Shown piece after piece: positions 1,320 to 42,708 of a DNA stretch of 64,000 bases. Where the stretch lies: assembly GCA_965116025.1 (NCBI GenBank), contig OZ220480.1:398415-462414 (forward strand), read 5' to 3'. A model generated the notes under the pieces. That model ran no database searches. It was not told where the DNA came from and saw nothing but the letters and a program-made list of their open reading frames with translations. The stretch's first letter is position 1. Each line of letters opens with the position of its first letter. The position numbers and the translations under genes are program-made. The stretch comes from an uncultured candidatus Porisulfidus sp. (GTDB lineage Bacteria > Pseudomonadota > Gammaproteobacteria > Poriferisulfidales > Poriferisulfidaceae).

Positions 1320-4300
1320 TCAGAAGCGAACCTTCAGCAGGACGCTCGCGCCGTAATCGTGATTGTCGCCATCCGACGCCGCGTAGTACGCGTCCGCCGA
1401 GAGCGTCGACTCCCCCTGCGCGTCCAGCGTCATCACGCCCCCGACGCCCAATCGCGCCCACGTCGACTCCACTTCCGAGCGCAGCCGCGCTCCCGACGCC
1501 ATCACCTCCCGGCTCTCCGAGAGATCGCGTTCCAAATCCAGAGAAGCGTACGTCTGGCCATTCTCCAATAACGCCCCGATCCGCGCCCTCACGCTGTCCT
1601 CCGAGCGAAACGACACCCGACCGCTCCCAGTAACCCCCGACACGTCGGCGAAGCCATCAACGTCCACCCAAATCCACGTCAATCCCCCGCGCGGAACCAG
1701 CGCGAAGCCGTCCATCTCCAGTCGCCTGCCAACCTCCACGCCGATCGCGTGACCCTCTCCGTCCAGACCGGACGCCACCATCCCGCGCGCCTCCGAACTC
1801 AAGTCGACGTCCTTGAAACGCGTGTACGAGAACTCCCCGTCCGCGTACCAGCCGTCCTCTCCCCGCCAGGTCGCCGAAGCCCCAACACCAACGCCCGAGA
1901 CCTCGATCTTCCCGCCGCGCGCGACGTCCGCCTCGCCATCACGGTAGTGCGCGCTCACCCCCAGCATAAGCCCCGGCGCGTCCGTGGGAACGACGAAGCC
2001 CGTCTCCACGCCCCAGCGCTCGAAGTCCCAAGACAGCGCGCGACCCGCATCGTCCATCTCGGTCGTGGACATATCCGCCTCCCGCTCGCCGTCGCTCGCC
2101 AACACCCGCGCCCACGCGCGCCCACCATCTCGCGTCGCCGACAAGCGCGCCTGGCGACCGCCCGGAGCGCTCATCTCCAGCAGCACCGACGGCAACGCCT
2201 CGTACACCCGAGCCCGGGCGTGGTACGTCCGACTGATCTCCTTCTCGGAGTCCACCTGGAACTGGTGCCCGCCCGTGATCGACTTCAGCGTGACCATCCG
2301 CTCGAACACCGCGTCGTACACCCCATGCGTCCCCGTCTTCCCCGACGTCGCCTTCACCGCGTCCCCCACGGCTATCGTCTTCGCCATGCCGGCCGTCGAC
2401 TCGCGCTGGAAGACGTTCGGCGTTTTATCGCCACTATTCAGGAATTTCCCCTTGACGAACGCGATCTGCCCATGCGCGTTCTCCTTCAGGGTGACATGCA
2501 GCGCCTTGTCCGCGCTCACCGCGATCCCCGACGTCGCGCCAATCTCCGCCTTCGGCCCGATCACCAGCGTCCCGCCGTTCACCATCCGAACGCCGGCGTG
2601 CTCGCCGGCGCCGCCCATCACCTTGCCGTTGATCGTGACCGTCTGGTCGTATTGCCCTTTCCGGGCGTGGTCGGACGCGAAGGTCCGCATCCCCTTGACA
2701 TGCACCCCGTCCTTCTTGGCCCGGATCGTCGCCATCTCCCCCACCGTGACCGTGATCTTCCCGGCCGTGGGCGCTTCCATTTCCGTGTAGGCAGTGGCGG
2801 TCTCCGCGTAGACTCCGTATCCATCAGCCATGATCACACCGCCCGACACATCGATCATGATTGGGATGATCATCTTTCGAGCGTCACCATCATCCGAATC
2901 GTCCAGGTCTTTCACGTAGGCCAGAATGCCGTCGCCCCTCGACATGATGTCCGCCTTCGACATGATCTTGATCTCCCCGATCTCGGTGGTGTAGGTCTCG
3001 GGGTTCCCCTCATCGAGCTCCTTGCCGGGAAGTGGCTGGGACTCCGCGCCCCCATGGATGGCGAGAATGCCGGCGGTCCGATCCTTCAGGTCCGCCAGCT
3101 TCGTCTGGTGATCCGCCGAGAGCGAGGAGGAGGAGAATACGTCGGACAGGTCGCCCGCGGTGATCTTCCCCGCCAAATGCTTCACGTCCACCTCGCCCCA
3201 ACCGGTATGCAACGCGAAGACCCCGGAGCCTTTCGCGTGGATGAGGCCCTCGTTGGTAATCATGACGGGGATCTCGTTGTCCGAGGATATGGTCTCGGCG
3301 AACACGCCATGCCCGCCGACTGGAGCGCCGGCGGTCCCGATCCGCGCTCCCTCGGAGACGGTCACCCGAATCGTTCCCCCGTGGGTCTGGTGGAGGGCGT
3401 ACACGCCATGTCGACCCACGGTCGGCTCGTCTCCTTCCATACCGATCCGCGCCCCCGACTTCAGCGTCACCTCAATGTCTCGGTTGATGTCGCCGCGCTG
3501 GCTGTCGTCGTGCGTCGTGCCCCGGTAAACGTAGATCCCGTCCCCGCCAGTTCCCGTCGAAGCGATCTCGCCCGCGAGATCCACCTTGACCAGACCACCG
3601 TTGTGGCCAGCGGAATTAACGTAAATTCCGTCTCCCACGATCTCCGTGTTCCGCCCGCCCGCCGTGATGACGCCCCCCGTCACGTCGACCGTCACCGGAA
3701 CCACGGAATCGGAGTCCCCTTGCGTAGTGACGGAGATGCCATAAGTGCGGGCCCAAATATCTCCGCTCGAGGTGATCATGATCGTGCCGCTAGGAACCTC
3801 GGCGGCGCCCATGGTCGTGTCCCTATGATCAACGGTTATACCATTTTCGTGGATAAACGCGTTATCGGCTAAATCCAGCGTGGCCTCATCGCCCGAGAGC
3901 GTTCGCGGGTAGAGAGGCCATTGCCTCTTGCTGACAAGCGTCCCGTGGTTCGTGACGGTGATGTCGCCCCCCTTGAAGAGGTTGACTAGAATGCCCTTGC
4001 TGGTCACGCTGCCCTTCGCCGTCTCGATGGCGACGTCTCCAGACCCCTCGTTGTACACGTAGATTCCTCGGTAATATCCGTAAATCTCGCCCCGGTTCAT
4101 GATCGAGACGTCGCCCTCGGCGGACGCGTTTCTGTAATACGCGAACACCCCATAAAGCCCCACCGGAATCTCCTCAGTGCCGATCCGCGCCTCGGCCCCG
4201 ACCGTGATCTCGATCTTGTCCGCCCTGTTGGTTTTGGAGGCTTTCTTGTTCCAGACGGTGATCCCGTAGTTCCTGTTGCCCCGCTGATACTGGGGATCAA

Positions 4301-4834
4301 TGAACGTCCCACTGAGCCGCTGGCCATTCTCCGTGTACATGGCCGTGGTGGGCGGAGTCCAACCGCCCGCCTCGTTCACGATCCTCACCTTGCCTTCCAG
4401 ATTCACCGTCAGCGCCCCGTCGCCGACCACCGCGACCCCGGGATTCCGGCCTTGGGTGGGACTGTCGGCAGAAGTGGGAGTATTGCGAGGAAGGAACGAC
4501 TTGATGGTCGTCATCTCCCCGGAAGGCTTCACGGTCAGCGTCAAGCCGCCTGTCTGACCCGTGTACTCGATAGGATTGGGAGTGGCGCTGGTGCCGCCGT
4601 AGGTCGAGGCGGCGCAGGTGACCGTTTTGGTGGCGCCGACATCGCCGCACTGGTTCGCCTTGGCGGAATGCGGAATCAGTGGGATCGAGAGAGCGGCCGT
4701 CAGCCCGGCCAGAGCGATCAGGAAACGAGGGCTATGCCCCCCCCCCCCCCCCCCCCCCCCCCTACGCGGGAAGACGACGAGGCGACGCGACGCGCGGCGC
4801 GCACGGTATCAGAAAAATGCGGGTTGACTCTCAT
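1320..4834 (-). CDS. autotransporter (type Va) copy 1: repetitive beta-helix passenger plus C-terminal beta-barrel; reading frame interrupted at a poly-G tract in this assembly
   Basis: The ORF track gives 1320..4544 (TTG start), and the C terminus ...DYGASVLLKVRF has a terminal aromatic residue, which is typical of an autotransporter barrel. The frame stays open upstream of 4544 and encodes a classical signal peptide, HSPRFLIALAGLTAALSIPLIPHSA/KA, but has no start codon. An ATG at 4834 with an SD-like AGGA opens a leader MRVNPHFSDTVRAARRVASSSSRV that runs into 26 G (4762..4737). This leader is 1 nt out of frame with the signal peptide. Confidence 0.8.
4737..4762 (-). repeat. homopolymeric tract, 26 G on the coding strand (C on the plus strand), inside the 5' coding region of autotransporter 1
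   Basis: Counted directly as plus-strand C 4737..4762. With 26 G the ATG frame terminates as ...RVGGGGGGGGGIALVS*. With 27 or 24 G the leader fuses in frame to the signal peptide. Confidence 0.9.
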
Positions 4835-12471: not shown

Positions 12472-13353
12472 TTATCGATACAGCGATTCGGGAGGAACCA
12501 GCCGCTTGCGAAAGCGCGGGTAGCTCCACCAGTACTGGGTCACGTCCTCGGCAATGGCCGTCTCCACCATGGCGTTGATCCCGGCCGCGGCCTCCTCCCG
12601 ATCCGGGGAGTAGACGCGCGGGTCGGCCGCGCGGAACGTGACATGGAACCCACCGCGGCGGCGGCTCGACTGAATCATGAGCGCGACGACATCCTGCCGC
12701 CGCGCCAGACGGGCGGCCAGACCGCCCGTGTTCGCCAGCACCCCGAAGAACGGCGCCATCACGCCGTCCTCCTTCCGGCGCGGGACGTGGTCCGGCAAGA
12801 TGCCGACCGCGCGCCCCTCCCGAAGCGCCTGCAAGAGCATGCGCACGCCGCCGCGGTCCGCGGGAACCAGAACCGCGCCGGTGTGCTGCCGTCCCTGGCG
12901 GACGAAGCCATCGATCCTGCGGTGCCTCAGCGGCCGGTACATGCTGCGCATGGCGACATGCCCGGTCAGGTACAGGCCGCTGAATTCCCAATTCCCGAAA
13001 TGCGGCGTCACCAGAACGATTCCCTTGCCGCTCGCCCGGGCCCGCTCCAGCAAATCCAGCCCCGTCACCCGAACCGCGAGAGACTCGATCCGCGCCGGCG
13101 ACAGGCGCCACAGGCGCGGCATCTCCAGCAGGGTGCGGGCCTCATGGATCAGACTCTTGCGCGCCACGCTCCAGCGCCAGGCATCGCTTTTCTCCGGGTA
13201 GCAGAGACGTAGATTCGCCAAGCAGATTTCGAGCCGGCGACCCGGCACGTAGCCGAGCCAGAGCCCCGCGAGGCCACCCAAAAGGCGCGACAGGGGCAAC
13301 GGCGCCAGCGAGAGAAGCCGTAGCAGAAACAGGGAAAAACGCGAATCGAGCAC
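12472..13353 (-). CDS. lipid A biosynthesis lauroyl/myristoyl acyltransferase family protein (LpxL/HtrB-like, LPLAT superfamily)
   Basis: It has an N-terminal hydrophobic anchor and the HFGNWE catalytic motif (HX4D/E type) found in the LpxL/LpxM family. 293 aa. Confidence 0.75.
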   Translation of the reverse strand: MLDSRFSLFLLRLLSLAPLPLSRLLGGLAGLWLGYVPGRRLEICLANLRLCYPEKSDAWRWSVARKSLIHEARTLLEMPRLWRLSPARIESLAVRVTGLDLLERARASGKGIVLVTPHFGNWEFSGLYLTGHVAMRSMYRPLRHRRIDGFVRQGRQHTGAVLVPADRGGVRMLLQALREGRAVGILPDHVPRRKEDGVMAPFFGVLANTGGLAARLARRQDVVALMIQSSRRRGGFHVTFRAADPRVYSPDREEAAAGINAMVETAIAEDVTQYWWSYPRFRKRLVPPESLYR

Positions 13354-13515
13354 GAAACTCTGGTCCCCGCGCGGCGGGTATAGGCTGGACTTCCCGGGAT
13401 TGATCGAGGCGGGATTCGTCCTAGCCGGAACGCGGTGTCGGCCAGCACGGGGCCATGGAACGGGCGGCCATGAGTCTTCCGTCCTCTTTGGTCATTTAGA
13501 GTCTAGAGTCGCGCC

Positions 13516-13629
13516 CTACGCGCCATACAAAACGTCCGTTATCAGATACGCGAGCCACGCGAACACCGCGAGGATCGGAGCGTACAGGCACAGCAATATT
13601 ATCGCCCAATGCCGCAGTTTCCGCATCAT
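13516..13629 (-). CDS. 37-aa hydrophobic peptide (predicted single transmembrane helix)
   Basis: An AGG sits before the ATGATG start. The product is MMRKLRHWAIILLCLYAPILAVFAWLAYLITDVLYGA. It is the third ORF of a tightly packed trio; see the findings. Confidence 0.35.
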   Translation of the reverse strand: MMRKLRHWAIILLCLYAPILAVFAWLAYLITDVLYGA

Positions 13630-13654
13630 ACCTACAACGTGGCCAGCTTGCGAC

Positions 13655-13861
13655 CTAGCGCCAGCGATTGTCGCAGGCACCAATCGTGCCGTCCGCGTGC
13701 GTGAGCAGCAGGTCGTGCTCAGCAGGCTTGAGCTGCTCCCCCGCGCGCCAGCACCGATGCAGAACTTGCACTCTCGATGCCTCGCCATTCCCCACCAGAC
13801 TGGGCGAGTCTTCGGGATCTTCCCGAAATTGAATAACGTCGTCGTGCTTGCCGCCCATCAT
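13655..13861 (-). CDS. 68-aa hypothetical protein whose start overlaps the stop of the upstream 47-aa ORF
   Basis: ORF track 13655..13861. Its ATG overlaps the TGA of the upstream ORF (ATGA). I recognise no family. Confidence 0.4.
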   Translation of the reverse strand: MMGGKHDDVIQFREDPEDSPSLVGNGEASRVQVLHRCWRAGEQLKPAEHDLLLTHADGTIGACDNRWR

Positions 13862-14001
13862 CCCAAGAAGTCAAAATCGGACTCGACCAACTCGTCCGCG
13901 CTCACGCCCATAAGCGTGACGCTCACGCCTTCCCGGCACTCGGTGATCACCGCGTTACTGGCTTCGCTGTCCGTGATCGTCAAGTCTTTGTATTTCGCCA
14001 T
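13858..14001 (-). CDS. 47-aa ORF ending in the C-terminal motif ...ELVESDFDFLG, which it shares with the two RTX-like proteins
   Basis: Manual translation of the minus strand gives MAKYKDLTITDSEASNAVITECREGVSVTLMGVSADELVESDFDFLG*. The stop is at 13860..13858 and overlaps the start of the next ORF. It falls below the length cutoff of the ORF track. Confidence 0.45.
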   Translation of the reverse strand: MAKYKDLTITDSEASNAVITECREGVSVTLMGVSADELVESDFDFLG

Positions 14002-14206
14002 ACTAATTTAGACGCGCTCCGCGAGGCCGGTGCTAGTGTAGCAGACTATCCCGACCGGGAATCCGCGCTAGGAAAACTTGGAATAAGCAACCTTGAAACT
14101 GGCTTTATGAACCGCGCGTGCCATCCACTCATCGATTAGCGTATCCGCGTCCAGCCCCGCCCCCGCGGGAACGCCGTTATAGAATGAGCGGCGCTCACCC
14201 ACCCCG

Positions 14207-15157
14207 ATGCTCTACCCCGCGATCCGCCCCTATTCGACCCGTCGCCTGCAGGTCGACGGGCGACATGCATTGCATGTGGAGGAGTGCGGCAGTCCAGAGG
14301 GCGTGCCGGTGGTGTTCCTGCACGGCGGCCCGGGCGCAGGTTGCGAGGACTACCATCGCCAGTTCTTCGATCCGGAGAAATACCGAATCGTGCTGTTCGA
14401 CCAGCGCGGCGCCGGACGCTCGACGCCCCACGCGGACTTGACCGACAACACCACGGCTCATCTAGTCGAGGACATCGAGAAGATCCGCGAGGAGCTGGGA
14501 ATCGACCGGTGGCTCGTGTTCGGCGGCTCCTGGGGCTCCACCCTCGGGCTGGCCTACGCCCAGAGCCACCCGAAACGCGCGCTGGGCCTGATCTTGCGCG
14601 GCATCTTCCTGTGCCGGCGGCGCGACCTCCTTTGGTTCTACCAGGAAGGCGCGGACAATATCTTCCCCGATTACTGGCGGGACTTCTTGGAGCCCATACC
14701 GGAAGCGGAGCGCGGCGACCTGATGCGGGCCTACCACCACCGACTGACCGGGCCTGACGAGCTGATCCGCATGAAGGCGGCCAAGGCCTGGGCGCTCTGG
14801 GAGGCGCGCTGCTCGAATCTGCAGCACGACGCCCGGGTCGTGGAGGCGTTCAGCGACCCGCACATGGCGCTCGGTCTGGCGCGCGTGGAGTGCCACTACT
14901 TCGTCAACCGAATCTTCCTGCCAGAGAACCAGTTGCTGAAGCGAATCGGGAAACTGACGGGGGTTCCGGGAATTCTGGTGCATGGACGCTACGATATCGT
15001 CTGCCCCATCGATCAGGCTTTCGCGCTGCATCGCGCCTGGCCCGGGTCGCGCCTGGACCTAATTGCCGAAGCGGGGCACTCGGCCCGAGAGCAGGGCATC
15101 ACCACCGCCCTGATCGCGGCCACCGAGGAGATGCACTCGCGCCTGACTCGGGCGTGA
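14207..15157 (+). CDS. pip: proline iminopeptidase
   Basis: It contains the LHGGPGAG and GGSWGSTLGLAY (GxSxG nucleophile) motifs of the alpha/beta-hydrolase Pip family. 316 aa. Confidence 0.9.
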   Translation: MLYPAIRPYSTRRLQVDGRHALHVEECGSPEGVPVVFLHGGPGAGCEDYHRQFFDPEKYRIVLFDQRGAGRSTPHADLTDNTTAHLVEDIEKIREELGIDRWLVFGGSWGSTLGLAYAQSHPKRALGLILRGIFLCRRRDLLWFYQEGADNIFPDYWRDFLEPIPEAERGDLMRAYHHRLTGPDELIRMKAAKAWALWEARCSNLQHDARVVEAFSDPHMALGLARVECHYFVNRIFLPENQLLKRIGKLTGVPGILVHGRYDIVCPIDQAFALHRAWPGSRLDLIAEAGHSAREQGITTALIAATEEMHSRLTRA

Positions 15158-15703: not shown

Positions 15704-18700
15704 TCAGAAGCGAACCTTCAGCAGGACGCTCGCGCCGTAATCGTGATTGTCGCCGTCCGACGCCGCGTAGTGAGCGTCACCCGATAGCGTCGACTCCCCT
15801 TGCGCGTCCAAGACCATCACGCCCCCGCTGCCCAAACGCGCCCACGTGGACTCCACCTCCGAGCGCAGCCGCGACCCCGAAGCCATCACGTCCCGGCTCT
15901 CCGACAGCTCGCGCTCCACGTCCAATGAGGCGTACGTCTCGCCGTTCTCCAACAGTACCCCGATACGCGCCCGCGCGCTGTCCTCCGAGCGAAACGACAC
16001 CCGACCGCTTCCAGCAACGCCCGAAACGTCGGCGAAGTCGTCGACATCCACCCATGTCCACGTCAATCCTCCGCGCGGGATCAGCGCGAAGCCGTCCATC
16101 TCCATGCGCCTGCCGACCTCCACGCCGACCGCGTGACCCTCTCCGTCCAGACCGGACGCCACCATCCCCCGAGTCTCCGAGCTCAGGTCGACATCCTCGA
16201 AACGCGTGTACGAGAGCTCCCCGTCCGCGTACCAGCCGTCCTCCCCCCGCCAAGTCGCCGATGCCCCGACGCCCACGCCCGAGACCTCGATCTTCCCGCC
16301 CCGCGCGACGTCCGCCTCGCCGTCGCGGTAGTGCGCGCTCACGCCCAGCATCAGCCCCGGCGCGTCCGTAGGAACGACGATGCCCGTCTCCACGCCCCAG
16401 CGCTCGAAATCCCAAGACAGCGCGCGACCCGCATCGTCCATCTCGGTCGTGGATGTCTCCACCTCCCGCTCGCCGTCGCTCGCCAACACCCGCGCCCACG
16501 CGCCCCCGCCGTCCCGCGTCGCCGACAAACGCGCCTGACGACCGCCCGGCGCGCTCATCTCCAGCAGCACCGACGGCAGCGCCTCGTACACCCGAGCCCG
16601 GGCATGGTACGTCCGGCTGATCTCCTTCTCGGAGTCCACCTGGAACTGATGCCCGCCCGTGATCGACCTCAGCGTGACCATCCGCTCGAACACCGCGTCG
16701 TACACCCCATGCGTCCCCGTCTTCCCCGACGTCGCCTTCACCGCGTCCCCCACGGCGATCATCTTCTTCGCGCCGGCCATCAACTCCCGCTGGAAGACGT
16801 TCGGCGCGTCCTTTCCACTGTTCAGGAATTTCCCCATGACGAAAGCGATCTGCCCATGCTCGTTCTCCTTCAGGGTGACATGCAGCGCCTTGTCCGCGCT
16901 CACCGCGATCCCCGACGTCGCGCCGATCTCCGCCTTCGGCCCGATCATCAGCGTCCCGCCGTTCACCATCCGAACGCCGGCGTGCTCGCCGCCGCCGCCC
17001 ATCACCTTGCCGTTGATGGTGACCGTCTGGTCGTAGTGCCCCGCCCGGGTAGCGTGATCTTCCGCGAAGGTCCGCATGCCCTTGACATGCACCCCGTCCT
17101 TCTTGGCCCGGATCGTCGCCATCTCCCCTACCGTGACGCTGATCTTCCCGGCTTTCGGCGCGTCCTCGTCCTCGTAGGTGGTGGCCGTCTCCGCGTGCAC
17201 GCCATGCCCGTCCGCCATGATCGTTCCGCCAGCCACGTCGATCTTGATCGGGACGATCATCTCGATGTCCTGTACCCCCTCCGCGTCGTTCAAGTCTTTC
17301 ACATAGGCGAGAATGCCGTCGCCCTTCGACGTGACGCTCCCTTTCGACGTGATCTCGATCTTCCCGATCTTGGCCTCGTAGGTGGAGGGGGCTTGAGAGT
17401 CGACCGCCGTCTCGTCGGAAGCCGCCTGGGGCCGCGAACTCCCATGAACGGCGAGGATGCCGGCGGTCCTGCCTTTCAGGTCCGCCAATTCCATCTTTTC
17501 AGACTCCGTTATGGAATCCACGTCACTGTCCAAGATATCGAGCGCGTCGCCCGCGACGATCTCGCCCTTCAAGTGCTTCGCGACCACGTCGCCCCAGCCG
17601 CGATGCAGAGCGGCCACCCCCGAGCCCTTCGCGTGGATGAAGCCTTCGTTGGTGACCGTGATATCAGTCTCGTCAGTAGAATTGACCACATTAGTGAACA
17701 CGCCGTGTCCGCCAACCGGAGTCCCCGCGGTCCCGATCATCGCTCCCTCGGATACCGTCACCCGGATCGCTCCCCCGTAGATTTGCTGCTGGACGAGCAC
17801 GCCATGCCGACCCACGGTCGGCTCGTCTCCCTCCACGCCGATCCGCGCCCCGGACTTCAGCGTCACCTCAATGCCGCTGGGTTTCACGACGGCCGCCGGT
17901 TTGGTCGGTCGGAACCGATACGCATGGATGCCATCGCCACCTTCGCCAGCTGTGCCCGTCCGGGTGATCGCGCCCGCCAGATCCACCTTGACGAGACCCC
18001 CGTTATGCTCATGATGAATTTTGATCCCGTGGCCGTTCAATCCGCCCCCCATGAGGCTCCCTCCCGTCACGTTGATCGTGACCGGAACCACGGAATCGTC
18101 GTCCCCTTTCGTCGTGACTCGAATGCCTTCCGTCCACCAATAGGGCGCGACGCCCGGGTCCGTCACGACCTCGATGTCGCCGCTCGACGTGATCGAGACC
18201 TCGCTGCTGGCCTGCCCGTCCGCGGCCGGAGCGCTCTTGTCCTCGTGAAACACGTGAATCCCGGCGCGCGCGTACGCGCTTCGAGTTTCCACATGCCCGC
18301 TCTCCGTCGGATTCGCCATTTTCAGATAGCGGAGCGGATGGCTCTGAACCACGATCTTGCCCTCATGGACGATCGTGATGTCACCGCCGCCAGAAGACGA
18401 GCCCGGGGCTATCCAAACATCCCTAAGCCAGCGCTCTTCCAGACCCTCGTCCTGGAGATTCCCCGCCGACGCCCGGATCCCTTGCGAGGTCACGCTATTC
18501 TTCGCCGTCTTGATCACGGTGTCGCCCCCGCCCGAGCGATGCGCCAGTATCCCGGCATACGTCCCGTAAATCTCGCCCGCGTTCGTCACGCTGATGTCCG
18601 TGTCATGCTGAAAGTACGCTAGAACGCCGTACCCGCCCATCGGTTTGTCCTCGGTTCCGATCCGCGCCTCGTCTCCCACCATCACCTCGGCGCGGTCCTT

Positions 18701-19296
18701 CTGAGCGTCGGCGTCGCTTCCCAAGTGCTTCACGTAGACGCCGTGGTTGAGCCCCGCCCCGCGGTCCCTCGAATCAATGGCCTTCCCGATGCGCGTGACC
18801 GTCGTGGACAGCCCCGTCACGAGCCTCCGGGTCGCCCCGCTCTCAATGCGGACCCGCCCATCGAGAACGACTTTCTTCAGGGCGCCGGGCCCGCTCAGGA
18901 CGATCCCCGGCCGAGCGTCGCTCGCGCCACTGGGTATTCCACTGGACGTGATGGTGACCGTGCCCGCCCCGGAAGGCTGGACCGTCAGCGTCACGCTCCG
19001 GCCTGGCGCGGCGAGATCGTATCCGATCGGCGGGCCGTCGGCCTTGGTGTAGGTCGGGTCGTCGCAAGTGACTTCGGCGGCGCCCGAGCCGCTGGGAAGG
19101 TCGCCGCAGTTTCCCGTGTCCGCCGCCATGGCGGAGTGCGGAATCAGCGGAATGGAGAGAACGGCCGTCAATCCGGCCAGAACGGTCAGGAAACGGAGGC
19201 TATGCCCCCCCCCCCCCCCCCCCCCCCTACGCGGGAAGACGACGAGGCGACGCGAAACGCGGCGCGAATCTCGGAAACGGACAGGTTCTTGGTCAT
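15704..19296 (-). CDS. autotransporter (type Va) copy 2, paralogue of 1320..4834; reading frame interrupted at a poly-G tract in this assembly
   Basis: The ORF track gives 15704..19171 (TTG start inside the signal peptide, ...LTVLAGLTAVLSIPLIPHSAMA). Its C terminus ...LLKVRF is about 93% identical to copy 1 over roughly the last 600 aa. An ATG at 19296 opens the leader MTKNLSVSEIRAAFRVASSSSRV, followed by 23 G (19227..19205), and is 1 nt out of frame (ORF 19186..19371 in the track). Confidence 0.8.
19205..19227 (-). repeat. homopolymeric tract, 23 G on the coding strand, inside the 5' coding region of autotransporter 2
   Basis: Plus-strand C run 19205..19227. The count is consistent with the track ORF 19186..19371, which encodes ...RVGGGGGGGGIASVS*. 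24 or 21 G would restore the frame. Confidence 0.85.
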
Positions 19297-19446: not shown

Positions 19447-19522
19447 GGCCAGGTAGCTCAGTCGGTAGAGCAGGGGACTGAAAATCCCCGTGTCGGCGGT
19501 TCGATTCCGTCCCTGGCCACCA
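19447..19522 (+). tRNA. tRNA-Phe (GAA)
   Basis: A 76-nt cloverleaf GGCCAGGTAGCTCAGTCGGTAGAGCAGGGGACTGAAAATCCCC...TGGCCACCA, with anticodon loop CT-GAA-AA and an encoded CCA end. Confidence 0.95.
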
Positions 19523-19589
19523 GATCTCTCTCCGCAACCTCGTCAAGAGCCTCGTGGGCATCCTTCGATCGAGGTCCGGCCCGCGCCCT

Positions 19590-20979
19590 TCAAAATTCTT
19601 GCGAGAAGCTGATCTCGAGATCGAATTGATAGATCTCGATCTCGATCATTTGCGAGGGATCGAACGGATTCGGGCCTCTTTGCCGCTCCGTCGGAGAGTA
19701 CATGAAGGCGGCGCTGATCTCCCGATCACCGGACAATTTTTTGGCCAGGCCGATGGTGTAGTGGTTCTCCACGACCGCCGGTGCCAAGATGTTCAGCAAC
19801 GTCTCGTCGCGCGGAATGGGGTGCTCGGCGAAGCTCGCGCCCACGCGAAGCGTCAGGTCCGGAGAGATCGCGTACCGCGCGCCGATCCTGTACACATTCA
19901 TATCCTCCCAGCCGAACCCCGCTCCATGGTCGCCCCCGAGGCGGCTTTCCGGTCGTCCCCGCCCAGCGTCGGACAGCGGAAGACGTTCGAGACCGGATTC
20001 GCCACCGAATCGATCTCGCCGTACCAGATTTTCTGGAAATCGAAGACCAAGACCAGACCGCTTGATGATTTCAGGGCGAAGCCAGCCGTCATCGAGGGTG
20101 GAATGTCGAAATCCCCGTCCTCGGCGAACAAACTCGCGTAGTCGTCGAGCTCGGTCATGAACATCCGCGACTGATACGCCAAGCCGATGTCCAGATACGA
20201 GACCGGGCTCCACAGCATTCCCACCCTCGCTCCGTAGCCGAACGAGAAATCCCGGCCCTTGTCGGTGAGACCGTCGGGCCACTTCTCTCCGTCGCTTCGC
20301 GCGACATCCTCGGTATACCCGGTGAACGCGGAAAGCCCCTTCCCTCGGAACGCCTGGACCGCCAGTACCGGGCTCACGCCCAGCGAAAGTCGCTCGCCGA
20401 CCTTCCGCGAGTAGATGATCACCAGGAACAGCTGGGTCAGATCCACGCCGGCGACGCCCCTCCATACGTCCCTGGAAAGCTCTGGACAGGCTTGGGCCCG
20501 GAGCCATCCGGGTCGAACGTGGCGATTCCCTCGTTCCACACCGTGTTCATCCCGCCATTCGCGTACAGGGTGATGCCCAGCGAGCTTCGCTCGTCCAACG
20601 GGTGGTTGTAGCCGACTGGGGGGACCGGAAAGCAGTCGCGGTCGCTGTCCATGTCGTTGGGCCCCACCGTGAAAGCGACGCCCGGGCCATTCGCCGCGCT
20701 CGCGCCCTTCTCGTAGGCCTGCCGGGGGCTGAAAATGGCCAAGCCCGCGTCGAGTCTTCGTCCTAGATGGACCATTCCCGCGGGATTCGTCGCCGCCGCG
20801 ATCGCGTCTTGCGGAAGCATCACCCCCGCGCCCGCCATACCCTTGCTTTTCGTCCCGTATCCGTGCGCGAAATAGCCATTCGTCGCCATCGCGCACGGCA
20901 CCGCCAGCGCGCAAGCCACGCACGCCCACAAGACGCCAGGCCAGATCCCGTCGCGCATGACGTTCCTCCGCGCGCGCAT
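19590..20979 (-). pseudogene. FadL/TodX-family outer-membrane transporter gene carrying two frameshifts
   Basis: Three consecutive minus-strand ORFs in three different frames (20437..21336, 19898..20929, 19590..20507) encode, in order, the N-terminal, middle and C-terminal parts. The N-terminal part has a signal peptide and the motif ATNGYFAHGYGTKSKGMAGAG. The C-terminal part ends ...LEISFSQEF. The frame switches fall near 20470-20500 and 19930-19960. Confidence 0.6.
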
Positions 20980-21057
20980 CCCGGACGTCTCGAGTCTACC
21001 GAACGCCCCCCGCGAGTCAATTCTCGCCTCTGGCGTCCGCGCGCGCTCGGCCGCGCC

Positions 21058-21078
21058 TAATTGCAGACATCCTGACCT
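21058..21078. repeat. left terminal inverted repeat of the IS
   Basis: CAGACATCCTGACCT at 21064-21078 is the reverse complement of 23445-23459. Confidence 0.65.
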
Positions 21079-21195
21079 GGTAGTCTGATATCGCGGGCGG
21101 GCGGCCCCTCGAACCGCCTTGATTTTCCTGTTTTCTCTGGCGTTCCGGGTCGGCGCGCGCTGGCGTTTTTCCCGGTCTCGTGATATAATATTATT

Positions 21196-23424
21196 ATGAC
21201 GCATAATGTAGGAGATCGCGTGTCCGGACTTCCCCTCAGCCCGACCGAGGCCACCCCCATCAGCGGCTCCCTCTCGTGGGCCGTCATCGACGACATCGTC
21301 TGGTACTTCTCCGGTCTCCAGCCGATCGACTTCCATCTCGCCGGAGACCGGAAATCCCGGTTGCTGCGGGTGGCGAAGCTACGCCTGGCCAACCGGGTGC
21401 CAGAGGGCGATCTGGCGCGCGCCTTCGACCTATCGCGCTCGACGGTCACGCGGGCGGCGCGGAAGCTTCGCGAGCGGGGCGAGGCGGCGTTCCGGGAGCC
21501 GACGCTTCGGCCCGGGGCCGGGCGGCGGCGCAGCGTGGTGACCCCGGAGAAGGCGCGCCGCGCCGAGCGCATGCTGGCCGAGGGGGAGACCCGCGGCGCG
21601 TGCGCGGCGGCCCTCGGCATCCCGATCAGCACGTTCTACGAGAACCTGCGCGCCGGGGTCATCCACAAGCCGGCGCCCGACCCGGGGGCGTCCGAGCGCT
21701 CCGAGCGCGCGGAGCGAGACCGTAAGCCGGCGCGCGGGCGCGCCTGCCACGACGACGAGCGCCGGCGGCTCGCCGCCGCCGGAACGCTGGCCGAGGCCGC
21801 GCCCCGCTTCGACCGCCCGGCCCGCTCGGTCGCCGGCGGCGGCGTCCTCGCCGCCCTTCCCGCCCTGCTCCGGGAAGGACTGCTGGAGCCCGCCCGCCGC
21901 ATGCTCCGCCTGCCCGACGGCTACTACGGACTGTCCGCCGTGCTGCTCACCTGCGCCTTCCTGACCCTCTCCCGCGCCCGCGCCCCCGAGGCCCTGCGCC
22001 ACCAGGCGCCCGGAGAGTGGGGCCTCCCGCTCGGACTCGACCGCTGCCCCGAGGTCAAGACCCTGCGCCGGAAGACGGCCCTGATCACCGATGCCGAGGA
22101 GACCGTCCACGCTTGGCAGAGCGCCCTGGCGCGCGCCTGGATGGAGGACGAGCGCGACGACTGGATGACCTTGGCCGTGGACGGCCACGTCAAGGTCTAC
22201 CACGGACGAAAGGGGCGCTTGCCCAAGGGCTTCGTCTCGCGCCAGAAGCTGTGTCTGCCGGCGTCCGCCAGCTACTGGGTCAACGTCCTTGGCGGCAAGC
22301 CCCTGCTGTGCCTGCATAAGAAGCTGGACCCGAAGCTGACGCGCGCCCTGGAGGAGGACGTCCTGCCCGAGCTGGAGCGGATGGGTCAGGTTCCCGCGTC
22401 CGCGCCAGACCTGCGCCAGGGCGGGCGCCCGATGGCCACCCTGGCGTTCGACCGCGAGGGCTGGAGCCCGCAGCTGTTCGCGCGCCTGGCGCGCCGTGGC
22501 GTCGCCTGCGTGACCTGGCGCAAGGGCTCCCGAGAGGACGACTGGCCGCGCGCCGAGTTCCACTCATGCGCGGTTCCGGTTCACGGCCCGGTCGGGAGAG
22601 GCGGCTCGCTGACCGTCTCGCTGGCCGAGCGCCGGGTCGAGCTGCGCGACGGCCTTCAGGTTCGGGAGATCCGCCGCCTGCTGGAGAGTGGGCGGCAGGC
22701 GGCGCTGATCACGACCCACCCGGACATGCCGACCGAGGAGGTCGCCGGCGCCATGTTCTCGCGCTGGTCGCAGGAGAACTTCTTCAAATACATGCGCGAG
22801 GAGTTCCGGCTCGACGCCTTGCCGGAGCATGCCGTGGAGCCGCTCGACCCGGAGACCCGGGTGGTCAATCCCGAGCGGCGGGAGGCGCGGAAAGAAGTCG
22901 AGCGGATCAAGCGGAGGCTTCAGTCCGTCGAGACGCGGGCTCGCCGGAAGCGCGCGAGGGGAACGGACGCGACCGGGCTTGAGGCCGAGGCGCGCGCGCT
23001 TCGGAAGCGTCTTGAGGAAGAGACGCTCCGCCGCGACGGGCTGCCTGCCCACGTGCGCGCCGGGGAGCTCCCGAAAGAGCGGCGGCTCGACGCCTTGCCG
23101 GTCGCCCGGCGCCTGTTCGCCGATCTCATCCGCATGATCTGCTACCGCGCCGAGACCCGCATGATGGCGGCCTCGGTCGCGGCGCCGGGGCGGAAGCCCT
23201 TGGCGCGCAAAGCGCTCGCCGCCCTGATGCGGGCCGACGCCCATCTCCGGCCCGACCCGGAGCGCGGCGTCCTTGAGGTTGAGCTGCTCGGCTTCGCCAA
23301 CGCCGCCGCCGAGCGAGCCCTCCGCCCGCTGCTCGACGAGCTCAATCGAACCGAAACCCGCTACCCCGGAACCGACCTCCAGCTCGTCTATCGCGTCGCC
23401 GGCGAGCCGCCCACCGAGGAATAG
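21196..23424 (+). CDS. DDE transposase (IS4-superfamily-like), 742 aa
   Basis: It has an N-terminal HTH (DLARAFDLSRSTVTRAARKL), candidate catalytic D residues in LAVDGHVKVY and LAFDREGW, and the signature FSRWSQENFFKY, which matches the Y(2)R(3)E...K motif of the IS4-type DDE_Tnp_1 family. It is flanked by inverted repeats. Confidence 0.6.
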   Translation: MTHNVGDRVSGLPLSPTEATPISGSLSWAVIDDIVWYFSGLQPIDFHLAGDRKSRLLRVAKLRLANRVPEGDLARAFDLSRSTVTRAARKLRERGEAAFREPTLRPGAGRRRSVVTPEKARRAERMLAEGETRGACAAALGIPISTFYENLRAGVIHKPAPDPGASERSERAERDRKPARGRACHDDERRRLAAAGTLAEAAPRFDRPARSVAGGGVLAALPALLREGLLEPARRMLRLPDGYYGLSAVLLTCAFLTLSRARAPEALRHQAPGEWGLPLGLDRCPEVKTLRRKTALITDAEETVHAWQSALARAWMEDERDDWMTLAVDGHVKVYHGRKGRLPKGFVSRQKLCLPASASYWVNVLGGKPLLCLHKKLDPKLTRALEEDVLPELERMGQVPASAPDLRQGGRPMATLAFDREGWSPQLFARLARRGVACVTWRKGSREDDWPRAEFHSCAVPVHGPVGRGGSLTVSLAERRVELRDGLQVREIRRLLESGRQAALITTHPDMPTEEVAGAMFSRWSQENFFKYMREEFRLDALPEHAVEPLDPETRVVNPERREARKEVERIKRRLQSVETRARRKRARGTDATGLEAEARALRKRLEEETLRRDGLPAHVRAGELPKERRLDALPVARRLFADLIRMICYRAETRMMAASVAAPGRKPLARKALAALMRADAHLRPDPERGVLEVELLGFANAAAERALRPLLDELNRTETRYPGTDLQLVYRVAGEPPTEE

Positions 23425-23442
23425 CGCGTCATCCTATAATCA

Positions 23443-23775
23443 TTAGGTCAGGATGTCTGAATTGTGGCGCCCGCGCGGGACGTACCGTCCGTCCTCGAAT
23501 CCGCTGAAGATCTGGTCGACCAGCGGATGCCGGATCGGGCGCGGGTCCTCCTCCCGCTCCAAGTTGCGCTCCGCGACGTACGTCTCGACCGGCCGCTCGT
23601 CCACCAGAACCCGATACCAGGGCCGGTCCCGGGGTGGGCGGGACCGCGCGTTGCGCTCGTACCACTCGTCGCTCCCCCGGAACGTCGGGTCCACGTCGAA
23701 GACCACGCCCCGATAGCCGAACAGTCGGTGCGCGACCAGTTGTCCCGGGGCGAATAGCGCCTGACTCTCGCGCAT
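23443..23775 (-). CDS. hspQ: heat-shock protein HspQ (YccV-like hemimethylated-DNA-binding domain); 3' end fused into the IS inverted repeat
   Basis: The product reads ...GQLVAHRLFGYRGVVFDVDP...WYRVLVDERPVETYVAE, typical of HspQ. The likely start is the internal Met at 23775. The final 22 nt lie inside the IS right inverted repeat. Confidence 0.7.
   Translation of the reverse strand: MRESQALFAPGQLVAHRLFGYRGVVFDVDPTFRGSDEWYERNARSRPPRDRPWYRVLVDERPVETYVAERNLEREEDPRPIRHPLVDQIFSGFEDGRYVPRGRHNSDILT
23445..23465. repeat. right terminal inverted repeat of the IS
   Basis: AGGTCAGGATGTCTG at 23445-23459. It overlaps the last 7 codons of hspQ. Confidence 0.65.
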
Positions 23776-23835
23776 CTCCCTCAGCCCTGCTCCCGCCACT
23801 TGCTATACTGGCGAAAATCGCTAGGCGCGACGCTT

Positions 23836-24105
23836 ATGGAACGCACCGTCGAACAACGAGTTTTGGTCATGACGCGCAAGATTTTGGCACAGATCGTGCG
23901 GGAAGTCACGCCGCCTCCCGGCATGAAGAGTCCCTTGTCCCCCCAGACCATTCAGGACATACGGAAAGCGTTCGAGCTGATCTCCGCGCGGGAGCGAGAG
24001 TTGATGGAGGCCGCCGGGAACCCAACCCAGGAGCGGCCCCGATACGCGGACGAGCCGAAAACCGCGGCGACCGCGCCGATGCCCAAGCGAAAGCTGGACT
24101 CATGA
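23836..24105 (+). CDS. hypothetical protein (about 89 aa), first gene of an overlapping three-gene operon
   Basis: Protein-like ORF (MERTVEQRVLVMTRKILAQIVREV...). Its stop overlaps the next start as ATGA at 24102-24105. The start could also be 23800. Confidence 0.4.
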   Translation: MERTVEQRVLVMTRKILAQIVREVTPPPGMKSPLSPQTIQDIRKAFELISARERELMEAAGNPTQERPRYADEPKTAATAPMPKRKLDS

Positions 24106-24500
24106 TCGCCACGTCGGAATCGCGGGAGCGGATGGCGCGCCAGGCCATGGCGGCGCTCGACCAATGGCGCCTCAACACGGACGAGATCGTGGCCATTCTG
24201 GCGTTGCCGGAGAAGACCCGCGGCGCGCAGCTGGAGCGCTTCCGCCACGGCGAGGCCCTGCCGAACGACCCGCCCCTGATGACGCGCGCGGAGCACATCG
24301 TCGGCATCGCCGACGCCCTGCGCACATCGTTTCCCCGCAACAGCCGCATCGGGGCCCGCTGGCTGGTCACCCCGCATCGGCGGTTCCGCAAGCGCACCCC
24401 TCTGTCGCTGATGATCGAGGATGGCGTCAACGGCCTGTGCCGGGTGCGAGCGGAGCTGGACTGCTCCTTCTCCTGGACGCGGTCGCAGGAGGCCCCCTGA
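24102..24500 (+). CDS. DUF2384 (MbcA/ParS/Xre-antitoxin C-terminal-domain-like) protein
   Basis: The C-terminal region ARWLVTPHRRFRKRTPLSLMIEDGVNGLCRVRAELD matches the WL.TPN.ALGG.TPLELL...G...V core of the RES-toxin-binding DUF2384 domain. 132 aa. Confidence 0.55.
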   Translation: MIATSESRERMARQAMAALDQWRLNTDEIVAILALPEKTRGAQLERFRHGEALPNDPPLMTRAEHIVGIADALRTSFPRNSRIGARWLVTPHRRFRKRTPLSLMIEDGVNGLCRVRAELDCSFSWTRSQEAP

Positions 24501-24910
24501 TGTCCGAGATCTCCATTCCGGTGGTCGCCGAGGGGGTCGAGATCACCTTGGAGAACAAGTGCGGCTTCTGCACCAACTCCCTGTGCTGCCACTACGTCAC
24601 CCAGGAGATCGACACGCCTCGGTCCAAATACGACTACGAGCACCTGCTCTGGCAGGTCTCGCACGACCGGGTCAGCGCCTACAAGGACTCCGACGGCTGG
24701 ACCCTGATGTTCGAGACCGCCTGCGCGCACCTGCGGGAGGACGGGCGTTGCGGGATTTACGAGGCCCGCCCGCAAATCTGCCGCGATCATCGCAACGATT
24801 TCTGCGAGTACGACCAGCCGGCCGAGGAGGGCTTCGACCTGTACTTCCCGGACTATGAGAGTCTCCTCGCGTACTGCAAGAAGCGCTTCAAGCGATGGGA
24901 GCGGGGCTAG
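24500..24910 (+). CDS. YkgJ/UPF0153-family cysteine-cluster (CxxCxxCC) protein
   Basis: It contains CGFCTNSLCCHY and later CGIYEARPQICRDH, as in YkgJ-type zinc/iron-chelating domain proteins. Its start overlaps the previous stop (TGATG). Confidence 0.55.
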   Translation: MSEISIPVVAEGVEITLENKCGFCTNSLCCHYVTQEIDTPRSKYDYEHLLWQVSHDRVSAYKDSDGWTLMFETACAHLREDGRCGIYEARPQICRDHRNDFCEYDQPAEEGFDLYFPDYESLLAYCKKRFKRWERG

Positions 24911-25559
24911 GCGGCATGATCTCCGAGAAGTCCCGGATCGCGGGATACGGCAGGCTCCTCCGCTCCGGCTGGCCGCTGTCCGGACGCCGGACCGTGAGCA
25001 GGCAGCCGATGCCCGCCCTTCTCGCGTGCGCCAGAACGTCGACGTCGTCGTCCACCATGAGCGTGCGGGCCGGCTCGTGCGGCACCGCGTCCCGCAACGC
25101 CTTCCAGAATCCCGCGCTTTCCTTAGGCGTCTGGAACTCGTGGGAGCTGATGACCTTCCGGAAATAGGGACGGATCTGGGATTCCTCCAGCTTGATGTCG
25201 ACGAACTTCGGGTGCGAGTTGGTGACGAGGTAACAGGGCCTGCGACTGTCGTTGATCCGTCCCAGAAACTCCTCGATACGGGGCATCCGCGTCACCCGAT
25301 GGCGGATTTCCCGCTTCAGCGCGACCACGTCCAGACCCAGCTCCTCGCTCCAGTAGTCGGCGCAATACCACTGCAACGTGCCCCGGATCTCGCGGTAGCG
25401 CGCGGTCAGATTCGCCCGGGCTTCCGCAACGTCCATCCCGTACGCCTCGGCGAAGCGCCGCGGCAGATGGTGAAACCAGAAGTGGGAATCGAACCGCAGG
25501 TCCAGCAACGTCCCGTCCATGTCCAGAAAGACGGTGTCGATGGCCTCCCAGTCGATCAT
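24888..25559 (-). CDS. yrfG: HAD-family GMP/IMP nucleotidase (YrfG-like)
   Basis: It reads MIDWEAIDTVFLDMDGTLLDLRFD...LQWYCADYWSEELGLDV and is strongly similar in order and motifs to E. coli YrfG. The start is taken at the internal Met (25559). Confidence 0.75.
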   Translation of the reverse strand: MIDWEAIDTVFLDMDGTLLDLRFDSHFWFHHLPRRFAEAYGMDVAEARANLTARYREIRGTLQWYCADYWSEELGLDVVALKREIRHRVTRMPRIEEFLGRINDSRRPCYLVTNSHPKFVDIKLEESQIRPYFRKVISSHEFQTPKESAGFWKALRDAVPHEPARTLMVDDDVDVLAHARRAGIGCLLTVRRPDSGQPERRSLPYPAIRDFSEIMPPSPAPIA

Positions 25560-25633
25560 GCGTAATGGCGCTCCGCGCCGGATTCTACACTCCCTTCCGC
25601 CGCGATTTGCTACGATGGGCGCGAACTCGACCA

Positions 25634-26455
25634 ATGGATTCCGAACAGCTCTCCCGACTTCTGCCCGAGGCCAAGCGAATCGCCAAGGAGGCCGGCGCGC
25701 GCGTCCTAGCCACCCTCCGCGCGGGCTACGAGATCTTCGAGAAGGCCGATCGCTCTCCGGTCACCACGGTCGACCTGGAGGCCCACCGGCGCATCGTCGA
25801 GCGGTTGCGGGCGCTGAACGAGCGGTGGCCGGTTCTGTCCGAAGAGGCTTCCGTCCTTCCCGCCTGGAAAGTCCGCCGGGACTGGGAGACGTACTGGCTG
25901 GTCGACCCTCTGGACGGCACCCGCGAGCTGTTTCGGCGAAGCGGGGAATTCACCGTCAACATCGCCCTGATTCACCGTCGACGATCCGTGCTAGGGGTCG
26001 TCGGCGCCCCGGCTCTGGACCTCCTCTATCACGCGCGTCGCGGTGGCGGCGCCTGGCGGTCGCGGGCGGAAGAACCCCCGGTCGCCATCCGCGCCCGGCC
26101 CTTCCCCACCGATGGATCCGCCATCGTGGCGGCGAGCTTCCGTCACGCGCGCCCCGAAACTCAGCGGCTCCTCACGCGGCTGGGCCCGCACCGGGAGAGG
26201 CGCGTCGGGAGCTCGCTGAAGAGCTGTCAGGTCGCGGAAGGCTCCTTGGACCTGTATCCGCGCCACGGCCCCACTCACGAATGGGACACGGCGGCGGCCC
26301 AATGCGTCGTGGAGGAGGCGGGAGGCCAGGCGCTCGACTGGCGGCTGCGCCCGCTTCGCTACAACGCGGGACCGAGCTTGGTCAACCCCAGTTTTCTGGT
26401 GATCGGCGACCCCGGCCACGACTGGGCCTCCCTGCTGGATCCGGCGCCGCGATGA
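25634..26455 (+). CDS. cysQ: 3'(2'),5'-bisphosphate nucleotidase
   Basis: It has WLVDPLDGTRELF and the inositol-monophosphatase-fold motifs. The start is at the internal Met 25634 (the ORF track begins at 25565). Confidence 0.8.
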   Translation: MDSEQLSRLLPEAKRIAKEAGARVLATLRAGYEIFEKADRSPVTTVDLEAHRRIVERLRALNERWPVLSEEASVLPAWKVRRDWETYWLVDPLDGTRELFRRSGEFTVNIALIHRRRSVLGVVGAPALDLLYHARRGGGAWRSRAEEPPVAIRARPFPTDGSAIVAASFRHARPETQRLLTRLGPHRERRVGSSLKSCQVAEGSLDLYPRHGPTHEWDTAAAQCVVEEAGGQALDWRLRPLRYNAGPSLVNPSFLVIGDPGHDWASLLDPAPR

Positions 26456-26653
26456 CCGCGCGACCGGATCCACCGGCGAGGCGAGAAAGAGCCCCGCGTC
26501 GCCATCTCCGAGAAATCTGGACATCCGCCAAGAGAGGATCCGGGAATCGGCGTGGGACCCGGTACAATGCTGTCCCCGTGACCGCCCCCTTCCACGCCGC
26601 GGACTCCGCGAGCGTTCCGTGAAAGAGACGGCGCGTTCCCGCAAGCCGATCTC

Positions 26654-41623: not shown

Positions 41624-42454
41624 GTGAGTCCCGTTCAAATTCCACCGTTGAAGATACAGGGAATCAAGACTAGAGCGATACCGTTTATTCGGGATCGTGT
41701 TGATTGGGAAGGTTCTGGCCGTTGGATAGAACCTTTTGTTGGTTCGGCCGTCGTCCCTTTCAACATAAAGCCGGACCGCGCTCTGCTTGGCGACGCCAAC
41801 CCGCATTTGATCCGCTTTTATAAATCCATACAGCGAGAGACCGTCACCAGCGCGACAGTCCGTATTTTCTTAGAACGAGAGGGCGCATATCTCCTACGCG
41901 ACGGACAAGAGCATTATCATCGAGTTCGGGAGCGCTTTAACGACGCGCATGATCCGCACGATTTCCTATTCCTGAATCGCGCCTGTTTCAATGGCATGAT
42001 GCGCTTCAACAAGAAAGGATACTTCAACACTCCCTTCTGCCGGAAGCCAGAGCGCTTTCGGCCCGCCTATGTAACGAAGATCTGCAATCAAGTTCAGAGA
42101 ATCGCGGATGTTATGGCCAATACATCATGGAAGTTCGTTTGCGCTGACTGGTCCGACATTATCAGCGAAGCGCGGGAAGGCGATTTTGTGTATTGCGATC
42201 CGCCATACGCTGGACGCTTCGCGGATTACTTCAACTCCTGGGATGACGGCGACGCATCGCGGCTAGAAGACGCTTTGAAGGCATTGCCATGCCCATTTCT
42301 TTATTCCATGTGGTCAGAAAACAAGTACCGGAAGAATGATCGGCTGCATGAATCGTTTTCCCAGTATCGAATTGAGACGTTCTCTCATTTCTATCATTTG
42401 GGCGCGACCGAGAACTTGCGCAACAGGATAATTGAAGCCTTGGTTTCTGGATGA
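41624..42454 (+). CDS. D12-class (Dam-like) N6-adenine DNA methyltransferase
   Basis: It has motif I PFVGSAVV near the N terminus and motif IV DPPY (YCDPPYAGRF) near the C terminus, the alpha-class order. It is the first gene of a lower-GC block. Confidence 0.8.
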   Translation: MSPVQIPPLKIQGIKTRAIPFIRDRVDWEGSGRWIEPFVGSAVVPFNIKPDRALLGDANPHLIRFYKSIQRETVTSATVRIFLEREGAYLLRDGQEHYHRVRERFNDAHDPHDFLFLNRACFNGMMRFNKKGYFNTPFCRKPERFRPAYVTKICNQVQRIADVMANTSWKFVCADWSDIISEAREGDFVYCDPPYAGRFADYFNSWDDGDASRLEDALKALPCPFLYSMWSENKYRKNDRLHESFSQYRIETFSHFYHLGATENLRNRIIEALVSG

Positions 42455-42708
42455 AAGATTATATTCTGAATGCGCTCGCGCAAATTCAAAACGGCTATTC
42501 TCAATGTGGAATCGCTGATCGTATAGTCTCGTGTTCATCCACTTGGTTTGGACGCGAAAGCATGTCCGAACGCATCAAGTCCTGGTTGAAAGAAAACTCT
42601 AGTGACGCGCGGCGACTTTCATCACGACCCTCACTCAGGTCCAAGAAGGCCATGATGCGAACGCCGATCAAGGAAGCGGATATCTGCCATTTATCTGGGC
42701 AGCCGTAA
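42451..42708 (+). CDS. 85-aa ORF that exactly bridges the MTase stop and the Res-like start
   Basis: Its ATG overlaps the upstream TGA (ATGA), and its TAA overlaps the downstream ATG (TAATG). It has low complexity and no recognisable fold. Confidence 0.35.
   Translation: MKDYILNALAQIQNGYSQCGIADRIVSCSSTWFGRESMSERIKSWLKENSSDARRLSSRPSLRSKKAMMRTPIKEADICHLSGQP

Follow-up and report, generated by a model that had tools for sequence, protein, structure and literature searches.

We analysed a 64,000-nucleotide stretch of DNA from an uncultured Candidatus Porisulfidus sp. (contig OZ220480.1, positions 398,415 to 462,414; the whole stretch is referred to here as the window), focusing on three tiny open reading frames (ORFs), p47, p68 and p37. 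The first of these encodes a peptide that ends in the same residues as two RTX proteins encoded elsewhere in the window. Sequence comparisons indicate that a module of ~70 residues, which follows calcium-binding nonapeptide repeats, has this shared ending (...VS.D.L.ESDFDF[LM]G) as its conserved terminus, and the motif very probably represents a known type I secretion module. p47 itself is probably not a functional gene but a 3′ remnant, of fairly recent origin, left from an RTX-family gene. The three ORFs lie within a ~0.77-kb insertion and most likely do not form a functional unit.

The C-terminal module of p47 and two RTX proteins

The sequences compared are the following:

14001..13858, minus strand: p47, a 47-amino-acid (aa) ORF with the translation MAKYKDLTITDSEASNAVITECREGVSVTLMGVSADELVESDFDFLG
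13861..13655, minus strand: p68, a 68-aa ORF whose ATG overlaps the TGA of p47 (shared tetranucleotide ATGA)
13629..13516, minus strand: p37, a 37-aa hydrophobic ORF, 25 nt downstream of p68, with one hydrophobic stretch
34436..35608, minus strand: 390-aa RTX protein (Pfam HemolysinCabind, 206 bits, 12 stretches); module at ~34436..34693
35658..36347, minus strand: 229-aa RTX protein (Pfam HemolysinCabind, 94 bits); module at ~35658..35876

The coordinates and translations given in an initial annotation, made from the sequence alone, were all reproduced. That annotation had drawn attention to a C-terminal motif common to p47 and the two RTX proteins, and the motif is real and beyond chance. 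The six-frame translation of the window contains exactly three instances of DFDF, all of which continue with [LM]G and a stop, compared with a mean of 0.11 DFDF per sequence in 100 Markov-random 64-kb sequences, in which DFDF[LM]G-stop never occurred. p47 also scores 51.6 bits against a hidden Markov model (HMM) built only from relatives outside the window, with the homology beginning at about its ATG. The excess of DFDF and the score on a model free of window sequences make it vanishingly improbable that p47 resembles the RTX tails by chance.

The similarity extends well beyond the last residues. Residues 4–47 of p47 align at 40% identity with the C-terminal 44 residues of the 229-aa RTX protein, and the three proteins, which the initial annotation had described as being of unrelated length, are homologous across the whole C-terminal module. 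Judged from these alignments, the shared ending appears to be the ordinary homology of a domain and not a new sorting signal.

We used a 70-position profile made from the three window tails to search 1.84 billion representative proteins. The search returned 239 protein clusters at E ≤ 1e-3, of which 46 reached E ≤ 1e-10. The module forms the C-terminal end in ~70 of the best 150 proteins, followed by 0–3 residues, and the consensus of these module-ending proteins is ...F.DLTI....G.AVIT......SITLxGV.AS.LT.SDFxF. Other family members carry the module internally in several copies, with RTX nonapeptides in between; there are 7 copies in P0005, 10 in P0003 and a maximum of 13 in P0004. Positions 1–71 are always preceded by RTX repeats in intact members. 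Among 51 tails from the family, neither F ever varies, and there is almost no variation in the preceding D or in the L of the TL motif. Because the module both ends proteins and recurs inside them, DFxF can be understood as the final strand of a unit that folds and can be reused. The module with the DFxF ending is widespread, even as counted with a narrow profile, and is often reiterated inside giant proteins.

The module can be connected to characterized secretion substrates. A 52-sequence profile of the module (A2) matches the family I.3 lipase PML (2z8x) at residues 550–612 of 617 with an E-value of 7e-4. Further matches are to serralysin-type proteases, a LapA-like adhesin and AlgE R-modules. 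Three relatives, P0037 (33.5 bits; cut-off 20.7), P0005 and P0014, pass the Pfam model PF08548 (Peptidase_M10_C). P0037 also passes NCBIfam TIGR03661, the type I secretion C-terminal target domain (VC_A0849 subclass), over residues 137–199, although marginally (21.1 bits vs 17.6). It ends in ...LTDADFDFLGG, and its C terminus is identical to that of P0060, a gene remnant considered below.

Type I substrates share RTX repeats, a hydrophobic five-residue VTLIG motif and a motif at the extreme C terminus (PMC3430570). As cited in that article, a VTLIG-type motif lies upstream of the C terminus (Omori 2001; Kuwahara 2011), and the free C terminus carries an acidic residue followed by hydrophobic residues (Ghigo and Wandersman 1994). 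p47 contains both published signal elements, VTLMG at residues 28–32 and the acidic/hydrophobic end DFDFLG. The VTLIG-like motif is degenerate in the larger proteins (ITLEN in the 390-aa and IELWI in the 229-aa protein; family consensus SITLxGV), and the extreme acidic-then-hydrophobic motif, D-F-D-F-[LM]-G followed by a stop, is present in all three window proteins.

This organization is like that of the family I.3 lipases (PML of Pseudomonas sp. MIS38, TliA and Serratia LipA) and the serralysins (AprA and PrtA/B/C/G), in which the module likewise follows RTX nonapeptides. The SVTLVGV of PML corresponds to the SVTLMGV of p47, ~15 residues before the acidic-then-hydrophobic C-terminal motif. 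The parallel includes the fold of the 229-aa protein and the linkage of module relatives to a PrtD-type ATP-binding cassette (ABC) transporter and HlyD. Unlike these enzymes, the window proteins have no catalytic domain and comprise only repeats and module, and the terminal residues also differ, being DFDF[LM]G in the window and EGVLIS in TliA. The R-modules of the AlgE mannuronan C5-epimerases and the RTX blocks of Bordetella CyaA resemble the module in forming a beta-roll and cap that can be reiterated. However, sequence similarity to them is low (E-values of 0.04–0.7 in the profile search), and the window proteins lack epimerase or toxin domains.

The module is carried in the window by two small RTX beta-roll proteins of an ordinary kind, of 390 and 229 aa. 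The module profile matches residues 331–415 of the open frame of the 390-aa protein. In NCBIfam, the 229-aa protein aligns to positions 508–611 of 616, at the C-terminal end of the PueAB esterase model. Its AlphaFold model, based on a 15-sequence alignment, has a beta-roll and a folded C-terminal cap, with a mean predicted local distance difference test score (pLDDT) of 84.9 and values of 88–94 over the C-terminal 70 residues. In Foldseek searches with this model, the best matches in the PDB were CyaA RTX blocks IV–V, the PML lipase, alkaline proteases and AlgE R-modules, all of which are type I secretion substrates; E-values for the CyaA blocks, PML and the alkaline proteases were 7e-6 to 1e-3.

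The longest ORF of the smaller RTX gene runs from a TTG at 36437 and would encode 259 aa. Because the ATG at 36347 is preceded by AGGAG 11 nt upstream and the orthologue P0031 aligns from this ATG, the 229-aa form is the likely product.

We infer that the 390-aa and 229-aa proteins are exported; this would occur through a PrtD/HlyD/TolC-type system encoded outside the window. At loci L086/L087, which lie outside the window, a PrtD-type ABC transporter and an HlyD adaptor have RTX genes that bear the module on either side. The L087 transporter scores 578 bits against TIGR01842 (cut-off 510) and the adaptor 325 bits against TIGR01843 (cut-off 209).

Two results weigh against assigning the motif to type I secretion. 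No type I secretion genes are present in the 64-kb window, where the sole ABC exporter (52214..54307) scores best as MsbA and reaches only 173 bits as PrtD against a cut-off of 510. In addition, TIGR03661 has no match at E ≤ 1 in p47, the 229-aa protein or the 390-aa protein; PF08548 is likewise below threshold on the window's own proteins. The same observations, that Pfam and NCBIfam models miss the C termini of the window proteins at threshold and that the window has no secretion genes of this type, would be accommodated if DFDF[LM]G were the mark of proteins handled by some sorting or processing system other than type I secretion. We regard this as highly improbable. Profile and fold both show homology of the module to the C termini of proven type I substrates. 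It always follows RTX repeats in intact members and is linked to PrtD and HlyD in L086 and L087; its internal tandem copies are what a structural module would show and not what would be expected of a sorting tag at the terminus.

The motif is thus a subfamily version of the known type I secretion signal and cap. The suggestion of the initial annotation that the three proteins carry a common export or sorting signal stands as far as export is concerned, through the RTX module of type I secretion, and does not extend to an unrecognised system: the module matches known type I C termini and has PrtD and HlyD beside it in one locus outside the window. The type I C-terminal signal variant that the same annotation listed as an option is borne out by the matches to the C termini of lipases, serralysins and AlgE and to TIGR03661.

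These results have some practical consequences. The module is poorly modelled at present, with Pfam and NCBIfam capturing it marginally, and a dedicated profile would improve the annotation of type I substrates. They also counsel caution, because here a striking C-terminal motif shared across proteins of very different lengths proved to be how a common RTX secretion and capping module ends.

The insertion beside pip and its small ORFs

The three ORFs are all contained in a short insertion between two genes, with the following arrangement:

12472..13353, minus strand: lipid A acyltransferase gene, left flank of the insertion
13367..13390, plus strand: left copy of an ancestral intergenic motif (local alignment score 12 against the intergenic sequence of related genomes; reached by 3 of 500 shuffles)
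13391..14160, no strand: insertion of ~0.77 kb, holding p47, p68 and p37
14161..14196, plus strand: right copy of the ancestral intergenic motif, beside pip (score 13; reached by 1 of 500 shuffles)
14207..15157, plus strand: pip, right flank of the insertion

The pip gene is 79–87% identical to those of 13 species-level genomes, which marks the organism as a relative of Candidatus Porisulfidus, a sulfur oxidiser associated with sponges. In 12 of these Candidatus Porisulfidus genomes, the acyltransferase gene and pip are adjacent, separated by ~60–100 nt, and tblastn found no match to p47, p68 or p37 at the corresponding loci. The module was found in none of 80 pip loci. GC content is 0.595 in the insertion, compared with 0.68 and 0.66 in the flanking genes. 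When the insertion was compared at the DNA and translated levels with the window and with loci L081–L087, which carry the closest relatives of p47, only the p47 segment matched. No sister copy of the insertion was recovered; scans of metagenomes with alignments A3 and A5 matched patterns, none of which passed tblastn as a candidate, and looking up contigs by the exact proteins p47, pip and P0031 gave no result. The insertion therefore appears, on these comparisons, to be specific to this lineage and confined to this genome.

The relatives conserve an intergenic motif of ~22 nt, CCTCGCGGCAAGTATAGAATGA, and two diverged copies of this motif in the window bracket the insertion in a way that looks like a target duplication. 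Such a duplication would be unusually long, and it would leave each of the two divergent genes with its own copy. The motif contains a −10-like TATAGAAT/TATACT that can be read on both strands. A repeat search found no transposon-type terminal inverted repeats. Within the insertion there are no promoter-like or terminator-like sites, and Rfam and tRNA scans detected no Rfam family and no tRNA.

The initial annotation stated that none of the three ORFs appears in standard gene calls. This is correct for p37, which is not called, and not for p47 and p68, both of which are called proteins in NCBI/ENA. In the protein collection, p47 and p68 are each singletons, both from one contig, and the exact sequence of p37 is absent from 15 billion proteins. 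Among 5.8 billion clustered proteins, p68 matches only itself and p47 has no orthologue. Word-index searches with p47, p68 and the 82-residue tail of the 229-aa protein returned the query itself or nothing, and none of the three ORFs has a family match in Pfam, NCBIfam, PHROG or PADLOC.

We compared the coding signal of the ORFs with that of the genes in the window. The codon log-likelihood per codon of p47 is gene-typical (0.49, against a gene mean of 0.42). That of p68 (0.085) is below the 5th percentile of gene segments (0.10), and that of p37 (0.18) is also weak. ORFs of the size of p68 and p37 are expected by chance, because, in sequence this rich in GC, a 3-kb stretch contains 41 ORFs of 20 aa or more. 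Shine–Dalgarno analysis was uninformative, as most genes in the window have no clear Shine–Dalgarno sequence at the start of their longest ORF. p68 is probably not a gene, and p37 is probably not one either; the two most likely arose by chance as ORFs in the remainder of the insertion and are not partners in a three-gene module.

Residues 1–11 of p68 (MMGGKHDDVIQ) resemble, in degenerate form, a single RTX nonapeptide, LYGGKGDDTIK (shuffling p ~0.01). We considered whether p68 might be a second decayed RTX tail or the next gene of a tandem array and rejected this, as the likeness is limited to these 11 residues. Compared over its whole length, p68 shows no significant similarity (115 of 2,000 shuffles reach the score), and the module profile does not detect it. 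The resemblance at its start may be a weak hint of more scrambled RTX-gene DNA in the insertion.

The arrangement of the ORFs had suggested to the initial annotation a bacteriocin or immunity module, with p47 as secreted peptide, p68 as soluble partner and p37 as membrane immunity peptide. What speaks for this is the arrangement itself: the ORFs share a strand, p47 and p68 overlap by ATGA, p68 and p37 are separated by a 25-nt gap, and p37 has a hydrophobic stretch. The proposal fits poorly with the orphan status of p68 and p37, their weak codon signal and the chance expectation for ORFs of their size, and no p68-like or p37-like neighbours accompany the relatives of p47 at their own loci. We consequently give the bacteriocin-like module very little credence.

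The nature of p47

p47 covers positions 26–71 of the 71 profile positions, that is, the second half of the module, with a score of 56 bits against A2. This partial domain and the absence of p47 from the syntenic position in 12 genomes are what would be expected of a gene remnant. The initial annotation would have taken a motif confined to three places, in combination with a 47-aa ORF unconserved in related genomes, as a sign of a chance match; the motif proved to be widespread, and p47 is indeed missing at the syntenic site of the 12 relatives.

Other stand-alone mini-ORFs of the module provide an analogy. All three that we examined elsewhere are fragments of disrupted RTX genes. P0114 (46 aa) corresponds to the end of a multi-module gene and lies behind an in-frame stop. 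P0030, the nearest relative of p47 (66% identity over 44 aa), belongs to another and larger genome; a nonsense codon splits it, and its own stop is gone. P0060 (60 aa) is a copy of a P0037-type gene that IS66 has truncated, and it lies directly upstream of a PrtD-type ABC transporter and an HlyD adaptor. These remnants, from RTX arrays at L083–L087, are like p47 in being short called ORFs (46–147 aa) made up of the module tail only. They differ in that the disrupting event can be seen, in the form of IS66, an in-frame stop or upstream RTX repeats, whereas nothing recognizable lies upstream of p47.

We therefore favour the view that p47 is an RTX-gene 3′ remnant. A rearrangement would have introduced this remnant or left it in place, and the remnant would happen to retain an ATG and an open frame. 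Because no decayed RTX repeats are found upstream of p47, this interpretation rests on truncation, context and analogy.

Several observations weigh against the remnant interpretation. Neither the module profile nor the relatives-only HMM detects RTX repeats or other homology upstream of p47. The frame of p47 is intact from ATG to stop, its codon usage is that of a gene, and NCBI calls it, like p68, as a gene. Every strongly conserved position of the family is kept. The ratio of non-synonymous to synonymous substitution rates (dN/dS) is 0.23–0.32 relative to its relatives, with a three-point estimate of ~0.26 for the branch of p47 itself. p47 thus shows neither the relaxed selection nor the disrupted frame of a gene remnant, and, because of the low dN/dS on its branch, it has not drifted for long as a pseudogene. 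With 44 codons and no sister copy, the data fit a recent truncation and selection on the p47 mini-ORF alike and cannot separate the two.

A 44-aa ORF at 14202..14068 (...GAGLDADTLIDEW...), in the same frame as p47, was tried as a decayed first half of the module. It was not detected by A2 or the relatives-only HMM, even in a three-frame search space, and was rejected.

The intact frame, the gene-like codons, the retention of conserved positions and the dN/dS of ~0.26 would also be explained if p47 were a functional mini-protein, that is, an isolated signal module that is exported or that attaches to the ABC transporter or the adaptor, thereby modulating the export of the RTX proteins or competing with it. 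p47 has both published signal elements, and isolated C-terminal fragments of type I substrates have been tested as secretion tags, a 104-residue fragment being the most efficient (PMC3430570). P0060, at a locus elsewhere, keeps the same half-module, positions 26–71. Nevertheless, p47 is missing at the site in 12 of 12 related genomes and has no orthologue among the clustered proteins, each comparable mini-ORF that we examined is a fragment of a disrupted gene, and neither a promoter-like site nor, in the 64-kb window, an exporter is found nearby. Moreover, 44 homologous codons could easily stay open by chance after a recent truncation. On balance, we consider a functional mini-protein unlikely.

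A broader version of this idea is that half-modules of ~45 residues (positions 26–71, with VTLxG and DFxF) are a recurrent class of expressed mini-proteins in sponge symbionts, either exported themselves or serving as decoys or regulators of PrtD-type transporters, with p47 as a domesticated example; this seems to us quite improbable. Returning to the remnant interpretation of p47 and the chance origin of the other two ORFs, we infer that none of p47, p68 and p37 is functional.

P0060 (L087, 4452–5180) and p47 keep identical positions, 26–71, starting with F/Y-x-D-L-T-I. This agreement may be a coincidence, or it may mark a preferred breakpoint or the boundary of a sub-unit.

The closest relatives of p47 are found in tandem arrays of small RTX genes at loci L081–L087 (5.5-Mb and 6.2-Mb contigs of samples ERZ25068685 and ERZ26693861; GCA_965204935.1). 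The surroundings of these arrays contain IS66, IS21, DDE_Tnp_1, a group II intron reverse transcriptase, a phage integrase and conjugation genes. Nonsense codons or IS insertion have broken several of the copies in the arrays, which points to rapid turnover. The locus in the window documents how genes of the RTX family turn over in the reduced genome of a sponge symbiont, in line with the horizontally acquired toxin-related genes reported in sulfur-oxidising symbionts (bioRxiv 10.1101/605386).

Other features of the window

Several other loci in the window merit mention. At 31059–32966 on the plus strand lies an operon of the bufferin type, a class of ribosomally synthesized and post-translationally modified peptides. 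Its precursor is a DUF2282 protein (31059–31343; PF10048, 77 bits) with a signal peptide and a Cys-rich core, and it is accompanied by an enzyme of the MbnB/TglH/ChrH family within 31216–32193 (324 bits) and a DUF2063 partner at 32190–32966.

A tRNA-Phe gene at 19447–19522 is followed by an island that extends to 26622 and consists of ORFs without family matches together with a Transposase_29 gene at 21196–23424 (GC 0.73). The region 19447–26622 may be an integrated element.

Two minus-strand genes, at 1320–4544 and 15704–19171, encode autotransporter proteins of 1,074 and 1,155 aa, each with a beta-domain scoring ~90 bits; one of them lies just beyond pip. Finally, a restriction-modification-like cluster occupies 41624–47098 on the plus strand. 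It includes a D12 adenine methylase (41624–42454) and an N6_N4 DNA methylase (45341–47098), and a protein encoded at 42708–45344 has a weak, sub-threshold similarity to the BPTD_3080 family of restriction endonucleases (54.8 bits; cut-off 800).

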